From contig NZ_OZ034918.1 of assembly GCF_964030745.1 (NCBI RefSeq), forward strand, positions 270,001-302,000: a stretch of 32,000 nucleotides of DNA, read 5' to 3'. A program made the position numbers and the translations under genes. Under the pieces are notes generated by a model, which was not told the origin of the DNA, made no database searches, and was given only the letters and a program-made list of their open reading frames with translations. Of the stretch, positions 6,588 through 27,797 are shown in pieces. Within the stretch, counting starts at the first letter, position 1; each line of letters begins with the position of its first letter. The stretch is from Candidatus Saccharimonadota bacterium (GTDB lineage Bacteria > Bacteroidota > Bacteroidia > Cytophagales > Amoebophilaceae).

Positions 6588-6631
6588 AATTTATAAAGGT
6601 TTATAAGATTTAGATAGATACAAAAATATAG

Positions 6632-6780
6632 AGAAACTTCCCTTAAGCTGCTTTTGAGCTACTACTGGTAATTTGCACATCCATCTGGTGGTTAAATCCT
6701 CCCCTACATCTAGTAGGCTCTGGCCTTGCACACCCCTGTCTTCTACAAATCGCTCAGCATAAACAAGCCTCGAAAGCAGT
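6632..6780. repeat. Palindromic ~150-bp element filling the rplJ-rplL spacer (same family as 27798-27952)
   Basis: Long-range inverted arms: GCTGCTTTTGAG (6647-6658) pairs with CTCGAAAGCAG (6769-6779); CTACTGGTAATTTGCA pairs with TCTACAAATCGCTCAG; near-palindromic centre CTACATCTAGTAG. It shares sequence blocks with the rpmB-rpmG spacer element. Confidence 0.6.
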
Positions 6781-6786
6781 CTTTTG

Positions 6787-7326
6787 TTAAGTGGATGCTT
6801 TTGACAAAGTTTCTACTACTCCCATTAAACGTTTTTCTCCAGACTGAATCGCAGCCACAACATTTAAAATAGGAGCTTTCAAAAGCGCCATAATATCGCC
6901 CAAAACCTCCTCTTTTGATTTTAGGTTACTCAAGGCATCTAGGTGTTCTACACCAATAAATAGTTCACCATGAATAGAAGCACCCTTCAACACAGGTAGG
7001 CTTAATTTTTCAGCTTCCAAAAAAGCTTTTAACATTTTTCCGGGAGCACGCCCGCTGTCGCGGCTAAACAAAATACCAGAAAAACCCTTTAATATACTGG
7101 AAAAAGAAGGAGCATAAGCAGCGCACTTTTCAGATCGCTCCAGTGCCTTCTGTATCAAAGTATTCTTAGCTACTTGATAGACTATATTTTGTTCTGCACA
7201 ACTTTTTCTAAACTTGTTTACCTGTTCCACGGTAAGACCCATAGCGTCCACCACATAAAAACAGTCGAAAGTAGAAAATCTTTCCACTAGATTTTCTATA
7301 ACCTGTAATTTTTCTTCTCGTTTCAT
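6787..7326 (-). CDS. rplJ: 50S ribosomal protein L10
   Basis: ORF track 6787-7347. Start chosen at the internal ATG 7324-7326 (MKREEKLQVIENLVERF, a typical L10 N-terminus). This leaves a 4-nt gap to the rplA stop instead of a 17-nt overlap. Confidence 0.93.
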   Translation of the reverse strand: MKREEKLQVIENLVERFSTFDCFYVVDAMGLTVEQVNKFRKSCAEQNIVYQVAKNTLIQKALERSEKCAAYAPSFSSILKGFSGILFSRDSGRAPGKMLKAFLEAEKLSLPVLKGASIHGELFIGVEHLDALSNLKSKEEVLGDIMALLKAPILNVVAAIQSGEKRLMGVVETLSKAST

Positions 7327-12092: not shown

Positions 12093-12146
12093 ACATTAGT
12101 TTGAAATAAATTTTTGTTTATTAAATTTGCATACCAGCTTAAAGAA

Positions 12147-12291
12147 TAGACCGCTTGCATAGCCTATTTGTGATGAGCAATTTTTAGAGGAAGTGCAGTC
12201 GAGCACCGCAGCATGCTAAATGTATTTGAGGAGCATAGACCAACTTCGATAAGCAAATTACCATTAGAAATAGGTTATAAAGGAGGTTAAT
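12147..12291 (+). repeat. Degraded copy of the 'core-A' repeat element, abutting the 5' end of tRNA-Arg
   Basis: 12167-12276 aligns colinearly with 31726-31835 (TTTGTGATGAGCAATTTTTAG..GTCGAGCACCGCAG..TATTTGAGGAGCATAGAC..CCATTAGAAATAGGTT). Its flanks still resemble the inner arms of the 31670-31884 element. Confidence 0.8.
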
Positions 12292-12365
12292 GGACTTGTA
12301 GCTCAACTGGATAGAGCACTGCACTACGGATGCAGCGGTTAGGGGTTCGAATCCCTTCAAGTCCA
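12292..12365 (+). tRNA. tRNA-Arg (anticodon ACG)
   Basis: GGACTTGTAGCTCAACTGGATAGAGCACTGCACTACGGATGCAGCGGTTAGGGGTTCGAATCCCTTCAAGTCCA. Anticodon stem CTGCA/TGCAG with loop CTACGGA. Confidence 0.95.
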
Positions 12366-12402
12366 CGCAAGGCATTGTATCTATTCACGCCTGTGGTTGG
12401 GG

Positions 12403-12594
12403 CCCCTTATCTCCTTCGATAAAAAGTCTGGCCCGATAGTAAATAGCTGAATCGATATATTTTTCAGCGGGAAAGTCGTAAACTCAGCCCGCAAGCGGGC
12501 TTCAAACAGACGATTTTCTAATCCACTGAAAAATATATCGCTCAGCTGTTAGTGTTTTACTAGAGCGCCATTTTTTATCGAAGGAGACGCGGGG
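12403..12594. repeat. ~192-bp near-perfect palindrome ('P-arm' family)
   Basis: Outer arms: CCCCTTATCTCCTTCGATAAAAA (12403-12425) pairs with TTTTTATCGAAGGAGACGCGGGG (12572-12594). Inner arms: AGCTGAATCGATATATTTTTCAGCGG pairs with CCACTGAAAAATATATCGCTCAGCT. The central hairpin GCCC-GCAA-GGGC (12487-12500) has a GNRA-type loop. Confidence 0.85.
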
Positions 12595-12616
12595 CTGGTA
12601 ATGATAAGAAAAGCTA

Positions 12617-12803: not shown

Positions 12804-12878
12804 GTACTGCGTATACCAATACTCCATGTAAAAGTGGAATAAAATTCATTATTAACCAGTGACGTGAATAGATACTCA

Positions 12879-12907
12879 GAAATAGGTCTTGAAAGGGGGC
12901 TATTGGG
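12879..12907. repeat. Possible degenerate arm fragment overlapping the dnaG stop codon
   Basis: AAATAGGTCTTGAAAGGGGGCTATTGGG resembles AAATAGGTTGCGAAAGCGGTCTAATAGCC (14270-14298) at roughly 21 of 29 positions. Weak. Confidence 0.3.
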
Positions 12908-14969
12908 CAACTACTGTACCAAGTTGTTTGGCAATGCTGCGTTCAGAATCCTTAAGCACTTGGTGCACTTTGAGTAACTGTTCTTCCTCTTCTTCAGTCA
13001 GTTCTTGTTTCAGTGCTGCTCGATTTTCTTCAATAAGTTCTTGTACCAAACGAATTTTTAGTCTCAGAATTACTTCTAAACTCATTTTTTGTACGTGTTG
13101 CGCTTCTTCTATAGTATAAATACCATATTTTTTCACCCAAGCTTGGCTAATATCATGAGGAAAAGCGGTTAAGTTGATGGCCAATTTTCTAATGCGCTCT
13201 GCTGTGCTATCTAAGCAACATTGAATATCCACTACACTACCCTTCTGGAATGCCTCTTTACAATACTCAAAAACCAAGCTGCAATCAGTAGATCTAAAGG
13301 CCACATCAGCCAATTCTAAGAGAATATATTCATACAATGGTCTACCCTCATCTAATTTTGTAGCACCATAAGTGAGTAGAATACGCATAATTTCTCGTTC
13401 ATAAGCTTCAATGCTCGCTGCAAGCTTACCAGTCAAAGGAAGGTTTTTAGGGTCTACATATGGGTTACTTTTTTGCCTACTATGCTGCTTAGTAAATGTT
13501 TTTTTTTGCTGCCATACTGGAGCGGTTTGATGGCGCAATGCATGATAGGTAGTAAAAAGCACCTCTTCTTCTATAGCAAAAAGTTTGCTACATTTTTTCA
13601 GCAATAAGGTTCTTTCTATTTCGTCTGGAATGGCTACAATGCTTTGTACAATTTCTCGTATAGCCTTTGCTTGTTCGGCTGGACTCTGCTGAGTAGACTG
13701 ATAAAAACCAGCCTTAAAGGTAATAAAGTCTTGCGCCACACAACTGATATAATGATTAAAAGCATCTGCACCTACCTTACCCAGGTAGCTATCTGGATCT
13801 TCTCCTACAGGCAATGATATAACCTTTACCTCAAGCCCCTTTGCCAACAATTTATCTATACCACGAAGAGCAGCCCCAATACCCGCTTGGTCTCCATCAA
13901 AAACCAATGTAACCTTAGTAGCAAAACGGCGCAACAGGTCTATCTGATTTTCAGTAAGTGCTGTACCAGCAGAGGCAACTACCGCTTCTACACCTGCTCT
14001 ATGAAAGGCCAATACATCGGTATATCCTTCTACCAGATAACAATTATTTGCCTGTTTGATCGCTTGCTTAGCAAAAGAAAGGCCATATAATAAACTGCCT
14101 TTTTGGTAGACAAGGGTTTCAGATGAATTGACATACTTAGGGCTATCTCCAGCAGTAGGCTTCTTGGGCAACCCAATTGCCACATGGTAATTTTGTGGTC
14201 TATGCTCCTCACATACAACTGAGTATGTGTCGGTGCTCGACTGCACTTTTCCTAAAAATTGCTCATCACAAATAGGTTGCGAAAGCGGTCTAATAGCCAT
14301 ATGGCGTGCGCCAAAGGCAACGACTTGCCCACTACTATTGTGAATAGGAAACATCAACCTTCCTCGAAAACGGTCATAAATCTTAGCTCCATTTTGAACC
14401 ACCAACCCTGCTGCGATCAATTGTTCTAATACTACCCCTTTTGCTATGGCAAAACTATAGAACCCATCCCATTTATCCAGACTATAGCCCAGCTCAAACT
14501 TTTTTGCTATTGCAGATGGAATAGCCCGTTGCGCCAAATAGGGCAATGCTACCTTAGCTGCTTCTGGGTGGTGCCAGAGTAAATCTATATAATAGTTTTT
14601 AGCTAAATTCAATAGAATATAGAGGCTTTCTTTTGCTCGATAATCTTGCAAATCGGGGCTACCATCTGATGCTGAGGTTACCGGTATGCCATATCTTTGC
14701 GCAAGGTAGGTAATAGCCTCTACAAAAGTAGACCCTTCTATTTGCTGTACAAAGTTTATAACATCTCCAGAAGCATCGCAACCAAAACATTTATAAAACC
14801 CTTTCGTGGGCGATACGGAAAAGGAAGGGGTATGCTCGTGATGAAAAGGACAACAGGCCCAAAAATTTTGTCCCTTTTTTTTAAGGGGGACAAAATCAGC
14901 AACTACCTCCTCAATGCAAGCAACACGTTGAACAGCTTGAACGGTTTCTTGACTAACAATCATAGACAT
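12900..14969 (-). CDS. dnaG: DNA primase
   Basis: 689-aa ORF with an N-terminal CHC2 zinc finger (CCPFHHEHTPSFSVSPTKGFYKCFGCDASG), RNA-polymerase/TOPRIM motifs (PKYVNSSET, EGYTDV, VFDGDQAG) and an internal ~50-aa insertion derived from a repeat element. Confidence 0.95.
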   Translation of the reverse strand: MSMIVSQETVQAVQRVACIEEVVADFVPLKKKGQNFWACCPFHHEHTPSFSVSPTKGFYKCFGCDASGDVINFVQQIEGSTFVEAITYLAQRYGIPVTSASDGSPDLQDYRAKESLYILLNLAKNYYIDLLWHHPEAAKVALPYLAQRAIPSAIAKKFELGYSLDKWDGFYSFAIAKGVVLEQLIAAGLVVQNGAKIYDRFRGRLMFPIHNSSGQVVAFGARHMAIRPLSQPICDEQFLGKVQSSTDTYSVVCEEHRPQNYHVAIGLPKKPTAGDSPKYVNSSETLVYQKGSLLYGLSFAKQAIKQANNCYLVEGYTDVLAFHRAGVEAVVASAGTALTENQIDLLRRFATKVTLVFDGDQAGIGAALRGIDKLLAKGLEVKVISLPVGEDPDSYLGKVGADAFNHYISCVAQDFITFKAGFYQSTQQSPAEQAKAIREIVQSIVAIPDEIERTLLLKKCSKLFAIEEEVLFTTYHALRHQTAPVWQQKKTFTKQHSRQKSNPYVDPKNLPLTGKLAASIEAYEREIMRILLTYGATKLDEGRPLYEYILLELADVAFRSTDCSLVFEYCKEAFQKGSVVDIQCCLDSTAERIRKLAINLTAFPHDISQAWVKKYGIYTIEEAQHVQKMSLEVILRLKIRLVQELIEENRAALKQELTEEEEEQLLKVHQVLKDSERSIAKQLGTVVAQ
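14153..14300 (-). mobile_element. In-frame copy of the core-A repeat element inside dnaG
   Basis: 14231-14272 (CGGTGCTCGACTGCACTTTTCCTAAAAATTGCTCATCACAAA) matches the reverse complement of 12167-12208 at 39/42 positions and of 31726-31767 at 40/42. The flanking inner-arm sequences are also present. Confidence 0.85.
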
Positions 14970-15015: not shown

Positions 15016-18000
15016 TTAACTGTCTTGTTCTTTATCCTTGCTCCTGCCTTTATCTTTATCCTTGCAAAGCTTTAGCGCTTTTTTAGCTGCTGCTTCTAAT
15101 GCCGCTCCTATCTCTGGATCCAAGTACCTATTGGCTAGCTTAACATCTATGGCAAGGGTTTCTTGCGCCATATGGATTACTTCTTGTACGTAGATATAGC
15201 CTGAAGCATGACGTAAATCATAGAGTCGCTCAGCCAGTTTTATAAAGAGTACAGAAAGCTGTACATGATCTTCCTTGACTGCTTTTTGTAACCGGTTTTC
15301 CAAATATAGCAAAGAAGGATGATCCAACGATTCACGTTGATCGATGCCCAATACATTCAGTACAAAGGCATAAACACCTAGATTATAGTGGTCCCTAACA
15401 TAAGAAAGGGGTAAACAGGTGTGACGGACCAACTCATAGAGTAAAGAGGCATAAATTACTTTAGGGGAGTGAAAAACCCATTCTACCACTAGTTTGGAAA
15501 TGCCTACTGCACGTACATAAAATAGTTGGCCCGAAGCATGTCGCTTAAAGCCAAAATGTTGCCGCAGTAACAACAGCAGACCGGAAATCGTTCCCACATC
15601 AATAGGATCCATGTCATGAGAAAATTGAGCAACATGGTCATGGAACTGCATTAATTCGACCATAGAATCTGCGTGTTCCTTAGGCGTAACAGGGGCATCT
15701 AAGGTTAAACAATCTATAGGTAGTTTTGTAGTCATTTTACCGAGAATATCAGCAACATCATTAGGAAGCACTAGTAATATACTAGCTTGCTGTTCTCCAC
15801 CAGTCGTTTCGCAATAGCCATAATGGGCCTCCACAATACTAGATATGGTTTCCTGTTGGAGGTCTATAGACGGTGGTGCTGCCTGCTGCCCTTTCAGCCC
15901 CACAGCACTTACCATATCATCATAGATAGGCTGTACTTTAGGCAACACTTCAGGAACAGTAGTAACCTGGCTTATTACCAAAGCAGTAGCTTGAAAAAGC
16001 ATATATACAGGATAAGGGCCATCAATAGGATCGGCTTGCTTGAATTGCAAAGCAGTAGGTTGGAGTTTTACGCGCACAACCGGTGGAACGGAACCCTCTA
16101 CCTTACCAACTCGTAAAATGGACTGAACCAATAAATAGACTACTTGATGGATATCGCATATAATATAAGGCAACAACCATTCACTAGGTTCTTTTATGTG
16201 CTCTACGAACAACTTAGGTGGATGCGCCACCTCTTGTGATAAAGTAAACTCTACCTTACGTATCAACTTGTCTAAAGTAATTTTAGTAGGTTGGAGTAGT
16301 GCATGATCTTTGACCTTTGCCCTTCTATTGAAATAAGCCACCCAATCATAGAGTTTATTGATAATACTCTGGAAGTCTTGCTTATAAAGGGGCATATTGC
16401 CATCTAAAAAGGAGACAGATTGCTCAATTTTGCCTATTACTTGTTCCAAAACAGCGCCATGGCCTTTAGCAGGATTAAGGGCAGCAGATGGCACCATAGC
16501 CAAATCATAGAGCGATTCTTTTAGCTTTTGAGATGCCCTAATCTTATCTTGACTTCTCAAGTAGAGGTTTTGCGCCATATAATGGCCTGCTTTTACTTTA
16601 AAACAAATAATAACAGCCACCACGAGTAGGGTTACCATAAACAAGGGAAATAGGGAGGATAAAACAGGAAGAGACAACCCAACAAAGATAGGATAAATGA
16701 CTACTAATAATACAGCCACCACTACGCTTATGCCCAGATAGAGCGGTAACACCCATAAGATTACCGTATAATGGGCCAAAGATAACGATGCATTAAAGAT
16801 CGGATCAACTAGATGCCACCAGTACCAAAGTAAATTTAAAGGAAGGTAAAAAGCACATCCTATTAACCAGCATAAACCAATCAACCAATTTGGACTGGCT
16901 TGACTAAAGAAGGCTTTATAGCGTGTAAATATACCATAGGATGTAAAAAGCGTACCCAAAAGGCCTTGGCATATAGCCCAATAGAGAAGATCTGGCTTAA
17001 TAAACCAATAACCTAGAATAGCAGTAACAATCATATAGAGCCCCGTTAAGCGTAGGGTACCATCGCTAGGTCTTAGCTCAGCCAAGGTAACTTTTCTATT
17101 GGCCCAAGCATTTTTAATGGCTTCTTGACGTTCTGCGCGCTTGCGCGCTTGCGCTTGTTGCATTTGTTTAAAAGCATTATCGGGTTCGACCCACCCTACA
17201 CCTTTAGGCTGTTTAAGTAGGTAATGGACAGCCATCATAGCCAGACCATTGGCTATCATAGCAAGGAAAGAGCCATCGATACCTGTTAAGGGATATATCC
17301 ATTTTGTCCAAGCCCACATCACTAGCACACCTGTAGCCATTCCAACCAAAGCAGTACGGGCAGTGCCTCGAAAGCCAAATATAGCTAATATAAAAGGAGC
17401 GGTGACAATAGGCACACAAGCGGCAAGCCCCAAATAGAGCAACTGCAATAGGTCATTACAGTAAAAAGCCAACATCATAGCCAATAGGCCTACCAGTAAC
17501 GTGGTCCATCTTGCTATTTTAAGTTGAAAGGCATCGGTCACCTTTTTTTCATTGCATAGCCCCTTGACCATATCATGGCCAACCATAATCGCACAAGCAT
17601 TTAAAGAAGAGTCAGCTGTAGACATGGCCATACCGAGCAAACTAATGGCAAGCAGCCCCTTAAAAAGGGGTGACATATTACCCATGCTATGGTTCCAAAT
17701 AGTGTCTTTTGATAAAGCAGGTGCCTCTACAAAAGCAAATAGACCAATCAAAATGATAAAAATAGATATAGCGATACTGAAGAGCGTAGCATACGAAAAA
17801 ACTTCTTGAGCTTGTAGGGGACCAGAAGACATATATACCCGCTGCATCAGTTGAGGCAGTATAGAGGAAGCAATCAAAGATAACAGTAACAGCAACATAC
17901 CAACTAGTTGGACATCAAAACGGAATACATGACTAAATTGAAATTTAGCATGGCTTTGCAAGATGGGAAAGATTTCTGAAATGGGTTTACCTATTTTTAG

Positions 18001-18597
18001 AAACATAAACCAAGCCAAAAGCGGAATAATAATGGCAAAGGTTATAAATTGCAGCACATCTGTGAAGGTAACAGCACGAATGCCACCAAATGTCGAATAA
18101 AAGGTAAGGAGCAAGGTCGCCAAGATAGGCATTACATCTGGGTTCACTACTTTCACACATATGCCAATGGCCTGGACTATGACATTGATTTGCATAGTAA
18201 CAATGACAATAGCGCCACAGATACCCACTAAGGAGGCTATAATTCTTGGATATCTACCATAGATCGTGCCTATCGTCTCTGCTATAGAAAGATGGTACAT
18301 AAATGGCCCCATACGCAAAGCCAATTTGCCAACAACCCACAAGCCAAAGGAAGATAACAACATCATCACGACCCACCATAGGCCCATGCTATGAATACAC
18401 TCTATGCTACGCACTAGCCCCCCCCCTCCATATGCCGTAGCCAAAACGGTAAAAACCAGAGTGGCAGTAGAAAACTGTTTATTCCCCACTGCATATTCTC
18501 GAAATGTAGTTTGCTTGCTACTAAAATAAATACCTACCCATAAGGTTAATACCAAAAAAGCAGCCACTATAAATAGTGGTATATTCAAGCAGATCAT
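15016..18597 (-). CDS. Sodium:solute symporter (SSS) family transporter fused to extra TM helices, a degenerate histidine-kinase-like ATPase domain and a degenerate RelA/SpoT-type HD domain
   Basis: 1193-aa ORF. Residues 1-465 are polytopic with SSS-like patterning. Residues ~515-668 add TM helices. Residues ~690-945 end in IVEAHYGYCETTGGEQQASILLVLP, resembling an HATPase_c C-terminus. Residues ~1000-1160 show SpoT-like blocks: ASLLYELVRHT (canonical ALLHDV.EDT), IKLAERLYDLRH (canonical KLADRLHNMRT) and AQETLAIDVKLANRYL (canonical ETLEIYAPLANRLG). Confidence 0.75.
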   Translation of the reverse strand: MICLNIPLFIVAAFLVLTLWVGIYFSSKQTTFREYAVGNKQFSTATLVFTVLATAYGGGGLVRSIECIHSMGLWWVVMMLLSSFGLWVVGKLALRMGPFMYHLSIAETIGTIYGRYPRIIASLVGICGAIVIVTMQINVIVQAIGICVKVVNPDVMPILATLLLTFYSTFGGIRAVTFTDVLQFITFAIIIPLLAWFMFLKIGKPISEIFPILQSHAKFQFSHVFRFDVQLVGMLLLLLSLIASSILPQLMQRVYMSSGPLQAQEVFSYATLFSIAISIFIILIGLFAFVEAPALSKDTIWNHSMGNMSPLFKGLLAISLLGMAMSTADSSLNACAIMVGHDMVKGLCNEKKVTDAFQLKIARWTTLLVGLLAMMLAFYCNDLLQLLYLGLAACVPIVTAPFILAIFGFRGTARTALVGMATGVLVMWAWTKWIYPLTGIDGSFLAMIANGLAMMAVHYLLKQPKGVGWVEPDNAFKQMQQAQARKRAERQEAIKNAWANRKVTLAELRPSDGTLRLTGLYMIVTAILGYWFIKPDLLYWAICQGLLGTLFTSYGIFTRYKAFFSQASPNWLIGLCWLIGCAFYLPLNLLWYWWHLVDPIFNASLSLAHYTVILWVLPLYLGISVVVAVLLVVIYPIFVGLSLPVLSSLFPLFMVTLLVVAVIICFKVKAGHYMAQNLYLRSQDKIRASQKLKESLYDLAMVPSAALNPAKGHGAVLEQVIGKIEQSVSFLDGNMPLYKQDFQSIINKLYDWVAYFNRRAKVKDHALLQPTKITLDKLIRKVEFTLSQEVAHPPKLFVEHIKEPSEWLLPYIICDIHQVVYLLVQSILRVGKVEGSVPPVVRVKLQPTALQFKQADPIDGPYPVYMLFQATALVISQVTTVPEVLPKVQPIYDDMVSAVGLKGQQAAPPSIDLQQETISSIVEAHYGYCETTGGEQQASILLVLPNDVADILGKMTTKLPIDCLTLDAPVTPKEHADSMVELMQFHDHVAQFSHDMDPIDVGTISGLLLLLRQHFGFKRHASGQLFYVRAVGISKLVVEWVFHSPKVIYASLLYELVRHTCLPLSYVRDHYNLGVYAFVLNVLGIDQRESLDHPSLLYLENRLQKAVKEDHVQLSVLFIKLAERLYDLRHASGYIYVQEVIHMAQETLAIDVKLANRYLDPEIGAALEAAAKKALKLCKDKDKGRSKDKEQDS

Positions 18598-21090: not shown

Positions 21091-21116
21091 AACGACAGAT
21101 TCAGATGTAGGCCAAG

Positions 21117-21146
21117 CAATAGGTTGCGAAAGAGGTCTAATTATCC
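21117..21146. repeat. Arm fragment of the core-A/P-arm element family
   Basis: CAATAGGTTGCGAAAGAGGTCTAATTATCC matches AAATAGGTTGCGAAAGCGGTCTAATAGCC (14270-14298) at ~27 of 30 positions. It contains the stop codon (21141-21143) of the upstream gene. Confidence 0.6.
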
Positions 21147-27783: not shown

Positions 27784-27797
27784 ATGGTAATCACTAG

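Follow-up and report, generated by a model that had tools for sequence, protein, structure and literature searches.

In-frame insertions of small palindromic repeats, the Rickettsia palindromic elements (RPEs), have long been known in the genes of Rickettsia (Ogata, 2000, Science 290:347, as summarized in PMC2229807, PMC10969869, and PMC4316617). Protein-coding palindromic repeats have also been described in Wolbachia (Ogata, Suhre, and Claverie, 2005, Trends Microbiol 13:253, as cited in PMC3767692), and in-frame fusions have been reported for intragenic ERIC, BOX, and other MITEs (miniature transposable elements with inverted repeats; Delihas, 2007, 2008, PMC2229807; reviewed in PMC10969869). 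The only small repeat described in Cardinium is MITECca01 of strain cOegib, which is about 240 bp long, is derived from ISCca4 of the IS982 family, has been reported in cOegib alone, and is mostly intergenic or gene-disrupting, not in frame (Halter et al., 2022, PMC9769881). In this study, a 32,000-nt stretch of genomic DNA (the window) was analyzed. Its source is the Cardinium endosymbiont of Philonthus spinipes, phylum Bacteroidota, and its DNA primase gene, dnaG, contains in frame one copy of a palindromic repeat that is dispersed in the genome and related to RPE1. We know of no other RPE insertion in dnaG. No report of RPEs in Cardinium was found in the literature on Cardinium and Amoebophilus palindromic elements, including the cSfur and O. 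gibbosus genome papers; the presence of RPE1 in Cardinium has been hinted at by automated NCBI annotation only.

The element shares most traits of Rickettsia RPE-1: a palindrome of about 100–150 bp with terminal inverted repeats, many dispersed copies in both intergenic and coding positions, one frame encoding a conserved peptide of about 48 aa, in-frame placement in housekeeping genes without breaking them, and decay by deletion. It differs in that its host lies outside the Rickettsiales, in that Cardinium has two subfamilies, of which subfamily A, the one in dnaG, is diverged, and in that most Cardinium intergenic copies are not open, being one apex nucleotide short. The Wolbachia palindromes are likewise protein-coding and occur in an arthropod endosymbiont beyond Rickettsia, and a profile of the DnaG inserts matches in-frame Wolbachia copies; Wolbachia, however, belongs to the Rickettsiales, whereas Cardinium does not. 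ERIC, BOX, and MITE repeats are also small palindromes with open frames fused in frame to host genes, but they represent other sequence families, occur in free-living hosts, and are far rarer per family than the RPE cases. MITECca01 resembles the dnaG-type element as a small, non-autonomous inverted-repeat element that is abundant in a Cardinium genome; the dnaG-type element has a smaller size and a distribution of at least five strains, and no insertion sequence is known as its parent. Identity of the two was rejected on size, origin, and distribution, MITECca01 being compared by its published description (PMC9769881). The phenomenon is a known one, now in another bacterial phylum, and its sharing across phyla is the most interesting aspect: in-frame "selfish DNA in proteins" has so far been seen as a peculiarity of Rickettsia and later of Wolbachia, and now extends past one bacterial order.

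The Copy Within dnaG

The features of the locus are as follows.
12900–14969, minus strand: dnaG (DNA primase), an open reading frame (ORF) of 689 aa, intact except for the insert
14148–14297, minus strand: RPE1-derived in-frame insert, dnaG codons 225–274, AIRPLSQPICDEQFLGKVQSSTDTYSVVCEEHRPQNYHVAIGLPKKPTAG
14273–14292, minus strand: terminal inverted repeat at the upstream end of the dnaG copy (gene orientation: TAGACCGCTTTCGCAACCTA), aligned with the other copies
14156–14175, minus strand: terminal inverted repeat at the downstream end of the dnaG copy (gene orientation: TGGGTTGCCCAAGAAGCCTA), which the predicted fold pairs with the upstream arm

The window DnaG is 100% identical to the NCBI entry "DNA primase [Cardinium endosymbiont of Philonthus spinipes]" and has the Pfam domains Zn_ribbon_DnaG, DNAG_N (the catalytic N-domain), Toprim, and DnaB_bind. 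The NCBIfam dnaG model matches it with 420 bits, in two separate stretches, and solved primases align on both sides of the insert with flanks just 2–3 residues apart. The insert is located between the primase motifs FGAR and PKYxNS.

From terminal repeat to terminal repeat, the dnaG copy spans 14156–14292. A repeat search paired 12147–12217 with 14222–14292 (71 nt, 85% complementary) and 14222–14272 with 31726–31776 (51 nt, 88% complementary), and blastn of the dnaG copy against the intergenic copies gave 86% identity over 100 nt and 85% over 101 nt (E = 5e-24). An nhmmer model built from nine copies of other Cardinium genomes, with the dnaG and window copies left out, recovered 14148–14294 on the minus strand at E = 9.7e-32. 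The first-pass annotation of the stretch had described a reverse-oriented repeat copy with arms on both sides. These searches bear it out, the similarity persists under rigorous alignment, and both arms are present; its 42-nt block, 14231–14272, was recounted with the same result (39/42 against 12167–12208 and 40/42 against 31726–31767). Judged by its sequence, the dnaG segment is an in-frame copy of the dispersed repeat.

The empty site (L004 and L007, two of the Cardinium loci used for comparison) reads CATATGG/CTACTGCTGTAGAT, and the filled site reads CATATGGCTAT(TAGACC...GCCTA)CTGCTGGAGAT. The peptide, residues 225–274 (AIRPL...PTAG), is open in the gene frame and can be aligned with the peptides of the element family. 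An addition of about 50 residues had been claimed; the open segment has that extent, but relative to empty alleles the net gain amounts to 46 codons (138 nt). A target-site duplication of TA, CTA, or AATA would agree equally well with the junctions seen in dnaG and in a glycosyltransferase gene discussed below.

Other Copies and Their Reading Frame

The element is 137–165 nt long and palindromic, with terminal inverted repeats. Four further copies were detected in the window.
12143–12294, plus strand: RPE1 copy of subfamily A, intergenic and immediately upstream of tRNA-Arg(acg), 12292–12366 (nhmmer E = 1e-38 to 1e-50)
31701–31859, plus strand: intergenic RPE1 copy, subfamily A, nested centrally in another palindromic repeat (nhmmer E = 5e-46)
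27785–27949, minus strand: intergenic RPE1 copy, subfamily B, the closest to the canonical RPE1 peptide (nhmmer E = 9e-32)
6625–6794, minus strand: degenerate RPE1 copy, subfamily B, in the rplJ-rplL spacer (nhmmer E = 8e-18 to 3e-30)

The window thus has five copies, one of them genic; L003 yielded eight within 22 kb, L006 five, and L005 and L002 one each. The element is present in at least five Cardinium strains. No copy was found in L004, L007, or the cBtQ1 locus (L008, 22 kb). A contig scan with a 20-mer, in a collection without the window genome, returned two loci, L002 and L001, the latter discarded as a chance match of 23 nt.

The copy at 12143–12294 has an orthologue at L003 13011–13177, and RPE1 adjoins the 5′ end of tRNA-Arg(acg) in both genomes; the subfamily-type indels of the two copies differ, which hints at gene conversion among copies. 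The rplJ-rplL spacer, within a highly expressed ribosomal-protein operon, also holds subfamily-B copies in L003 (18718–18885) and L006 (18004–18153); in L004 the spacer is 57 nt long and has no RPE1 copy.

The canonical frame of the element family has no stop. In several genomes, intergenic copies from either subfamily are one nucleotide short at the hairpin apex (TACTAAATGTA; 12203–12226 and 31762–31785 in the window, and copies in L003, L005, and L006), and the genic copies have the extra apex nucleotide. The shorter apex creates a central TAA or TAG and a frameshift, so that the RPE1 peptide is split across two frames. The stops that the first-pass annotation had noted in the equivalent frame of both intergenic copies are present where it placed them. 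Its further suggestion, that the coding copy had been selected to be translatable, is not needed: the family frame is open, the peptide has a dN/dS of about 0.9, and only frame-preserving insertions survive in essential genes, which would leave genic copies open without any selection on the peptide.

Relationship to RPE1

The NCBIfam model of the RPE1 domain, TIGR01045, has 48 positions and a cutoff of 30 bits; we take it to have been built from translations of Rickettsia RPE-1. A homology search with the insert-peptide alignment returned no proteins. An exhaustive search of 1.84 billion representative proteins with a profile of the four DnaG inserts then gave 21 matches, mostly short ORFs of Cardinium genomes, including P0121 (7e-14) and P0123 (1.6e-10). 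One of the 21 has been named "palindromic element RPE1 domain-containing protein" by NCBI, and three are Wolbachia proteins: P0141 (an ankyrin protein of wCori, with the peptide in frame), P0135 (wFol), and P0132. Eleven of 21 family peptides match TIGR01045, and those match no other family. Scores were 43.9 bits for the Wolbachia protein P0141, 36.2 and 35.3 bits for the natural Cardinium ORFs P0121 and P0123, and 67.0, 57.9, and 48.7 bits for frame-corrected subfamily-B copies (the last being the window copy at 27785–27949), over almost the whole 48-position model. The frame-corrected window copies of subfamily A reached 29.9 bits (31701–31859, E = 4e-7) and 21.6 bits (12143–12294).

Since family copies score above the curated cutoff, the family is, on these peptide matches, homologous to RPE1 and not merely analogous. 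The analogy to Rickettsia palindromic elements drawn by the first-pass annotation was therefore apt as a comparison but understated.

Further searches gave no additional relatives. Chance matches alone were obtained when the consensus peptide was compared with plasmids by tblastn, and Rfam at gathering thresholds detected tRNAs alone in the window, with no structured RNA, intron, or ribozyme family. No parent insertion sequence with matching terminal repeats turned up in the loci examined, which include no whole genome and were not the object of a dedicated search.

Distribution Among Primases

The spacer between R222 and P277 was counted in 115 DnaG proteins. It is 7–10 residues long in 110 of them, in agreement with the claimed placement of the insert between FGAR and PKYxNS, and 52–55 residues long in four Cardinium proteins: that of the window genome, P0002 (GCA_025268635.1 / CP101107.1, tied to the Cardinium of Dermatophagoides farinae), P0005 (the Sogatella furcifera strain), and P0006 (GCA_036541165.1, contig JAZHET01, whose prefix is the Tyrophagus accession prefix given in PMC12039267). 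In the remaining protein, P0007 of the Nabis limbatus strain, the spacer is 13 residues long. Here the gene has GCTATTAGCCCCCTTTCGAAT, with about the first 15 nt of the upstream terminal arm left, and its DNA retains GCTATTAGCCCCCTTTCG, which matches the first 18 nt of the filled site of the window at 16 positions and identifies it as a deletion stump. The expected lineage specificity of the insert is therefore correct in that it is absent from 110 of the 115 proteins; it is not specific to one genome, being found in four Cardinium lineages and nearly deleted in a fifth.

By neighbour-joining, the insert carriers and the Nabis stump fall in one DnaG clade (79% bootstrap), which also includes two empty alleles, P0003 and P0004. 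The empty alleles may be ancestral or the product of precise loss; for the lineages of L004, L007, and cBtQ1, whose loci are without any copy of the element, an origin without the insert is favored.

Origin and Fate of the Insert

Based on these observations, we consider it very probable that dnaG contains a decaying element of the RPE1 family that has been tolerated since its insertion. A non-autonomous palindromic element would have inserted in phase between the sequences coding for FGAR and PKYxNS, in a loop stretch, and this would have happened in an ancestor of some, not all, arthropod Cardinium. As one element frame is stop-free and the inserted length is a multiple of three, the essential gene would have stayed open, and the approximately 46 extra residues are predicted to bulge from the catalytic core as an unstructured loop. 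Near-neutral drift of the peptide, erosion of the DNA/RNA hairpin, and in-frame deletions removing the insert would have followed, the Nabis strain representing advanced removal with a 15-nt stump left.

Four observations speak against this account or part of it. Internal bootstraps of the neighbour-joining trees (DnaG; DnaG+SpoU+Era) are 45–79%, and a strain tree this poorly resolved leaves it uncertain how often the element was inserted or lost. Comparison of three strains (window, L003, and L006) gave a pS of 0.30–0.40 in the insert and 0.48–0.52 in the remainder of dnaG. Both the synonymous and the overall divergence of the insert thus fall below that of the flanking synonymous sites, which would not be expected if one old insertion had evolved strictly neutrally. 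Subfamily-type indels conflict among the three dnaG copies. The inserts of the window and L003 have a "short" structure (a 10-nt deletion), as in intergenic L003 copies, and those of L006 and P0005 are "long." Finally, the dnaG insert peptide has no TIGR01045 match at E ≤ 10, so that its membership in RPE1 rests on DNA and profile links to other copies. The conflicting structure and divergence of the insert could each time be explained by conversion between element copies, by recombination of strains, or by the element having inserted more than once at the same site.

The strongest competitor is that RPE1 inserted independently at a preferred site, or was converted from genomic copies, in different Cardinium lineages. 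Both the short and long structures and the low insert divergence fit it, as does the fact that certain intergenic copies differ much less from genome to genome than synonymous sites do. We nevertheless regard it as rather unlikely, since the junction is identical in all lineages, the dnaG copies of L003 and L006 have unique substitutions and a 6-nt deletion in common, all three dnaG copies have tgtatGtg and the extra apex nucleotide, and the carriers and the stump share a DnaG clade.

The behavior of the insert within dnaG bears on a second alternative, exaptation, in which the loop would give the Cardinium primase a new function, such as a partner-binding surface, and be kept by selection. 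Among the three strains, dN/dS is 0.83–0.94 inside the insert and 0.11–0.14 in the rest of dnaG, and several indels, as well as a short frameshift that is compensated, distinguish the inserts from each other. Intergenic copies form a single long hairpin, like RPEs, of -53 to -55 kcal/mol (z = -8.4), as seen at 31701–31859 (-53.4 kcal/mol, z = -8.4); the copy at 12143–12294 gave -40.8 kcal/mol (z = -4.1). The hairpin of the dnaG copy is eroded (-39.5 kcal/mol, z = -2.9), and that of the copy in the glycosyltransferase gene is gone (z = -0.96). An AlphaFold2 model of the primase, made with the 115-sequence alignment, has a confident core (mean pLDDT 84.5); the insert lies between the strand 216–223 and the PKY strand 279–281, and residues 229–272 have a pLDDT below 50 and no secondary structure, with flanks at 93–94. 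The proposed surface loop is consistent with the model insofar as the insert forms an unstructured excursion from a confident core; the surface location itself is inferred, and it may be the reason why the insert is tolerated. Given the near-neutral dN/dS, the indels, the weak hairpin, and the low-pLDDT loop, the best reading of the insert is that of an unstructured passenger, tolerated by a gene under strong purifying selection. Persistence in four lineages whose flanking gene sequence has a synonymous divergence of about 0.8, and the invariance of positions D, Q, L, Q-S, Y, V-C, R, A, and K in the four inserts, could be taken to indicate a function. The invariant positions, however, are those conserved across the element family generally, and the insert is almost deleted in Nabis and absent from close relatives with intact dnaG. 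Together with the substitution, indel, and structure data, this makes exaptation very improbable.

It is also hard to believe that the likeness to RPE1 is convergent or spurious and that the repeat is an unrelated local MITE, of the MITECca01 kind for example. The dnaG insert and one degenerate copy have no TIGR01045 match, the subfamily-A copies of the window score below the cutoff, and the likeness to Rickettsia RPE-1 is known at the level of the peptide model, not of DNA. Subfamily-B copies, in contrast, reach 49–67 bits over almost the whole model, several natural ORFs exceed the cutoff, no other family is matched, and the size, IS982 origin, and single-strain occurrence of MITECca01 (PMC9769881) are all at odds with those of the present element. 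An assembly chimera or annotation artefact placing the insert wrongly in dnaG can practically be dismissed: nothing was found in its favor, the same in-frame insert lies in uninterrupted ORFs of four genomes that were assembled independently, in different projects and from different hosts, and a fifth has a stump at the same site.

A Second Housekeeping Gene

In the Oedothorax gibbosus strain (cOegib), a full RPE1 copy was found in frame in the gene for polyprenol monophosphomannose synthase (L002 7339–7482), the glycosyltransferase gene mentioned above. Four other orthologues have graded remnants at the same site. The synthase of the window genome (P0147, 255 aa, encoded outside the window) has an in-frame RPE1 remnant, HRPL...STPKLPLAIASQKRS, and shorter ones occur in the Sogatella strain, in the Cardinium metagenome-assembled genome protein P0148, and in P0156. 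No remnant was seen in the synthases of the D. farinae, Nabis, C. hertigii, Tipula unca, and Culicoides strains, or in the orthologue of Winogradskyella (a free-living relative) or the close orthologue P0145. Amiri et al. reportedly described a pattern of proliferation and deterioration for RPEs in 2002, and the staged synthase remnants in Cardinium mirror it.

RPE1 has entered both an enzyme essential for replication and another housekeeping gene, and the strains differ in how far its copies have decayed. The natural series of full, eroded, stump, and empty alleles offers a test of how proteins tolerate, and then shed, random insertions.

Sharing of RPE1 With Rickettsiales

Cardinium and the Rickettsiales may share RPE1 through horizontal transfer between co-resident symbionts. 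We slightly favor the view that RPE1 crossed phyla between Rickettsiales (Rickettsia, Wolbachia) and Cardinium in shared arthropod hosts, multiplied, and inserted in frame into two or more housekeeping genes. In that case, the mobilizer of RPEs works in, or is common to, Rickettsia, Wolbachia, and Cardinium, and comparison of the three could identify it. Such sharing would point to co-infecting symbionts exchanging non-autonomous elements, even very small ones.

Additional Observations

RPE1 copies inflate and split Cardinium gene calls, and masking or annotation of the copies is advisable. On a contig from an ENA metagenome (L009 2494–3978), a 494-aa ORF consists of a truncated ArnT/PMT_2-like N-terminus, an RPE1 peptide (residues 285–333), and a NusB domain; RPE1 appears to bridge two genes into one frame there. 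Solo pieces of 25 nt resembling the RPE1 terminal repeat are located at 12878–12902, overlapping the dnaG stop codon, and at 21115–21139, just upstream of and in frame with yidD, where the piece is probably untranslated.

The RPE1 copy at 31.7 kb is enclosed by a second palindromic family, with arms of 58 nt (31670–31727 and 31827–31884) that are 98% complementary. Further sequences of this family occur at 12400–12425, 12551–12603, 29392–29442, and 31910–31963, and its translations matched no NCBIfam family. Among the translations of other repeat families of the window, NCBIfam recognized YidD alone and no RPE model. A 598-aa ORF (29495–31291, minus strand) without a meaningful Pfam domain contains at least seven tandem units of 132 nt (29507–30598), 68–85% identical to the reference unit, and thus encodes a protein of 44-aa repeats. 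The 1193-aa ORF at 15016–18597 (minus strand), with a sodium:solute symporter domain and a C-terminal HD_4 domain, is intact in the window; its counterpart is broken into several short genes in L003 and L006, which suggests pseudogenization there.

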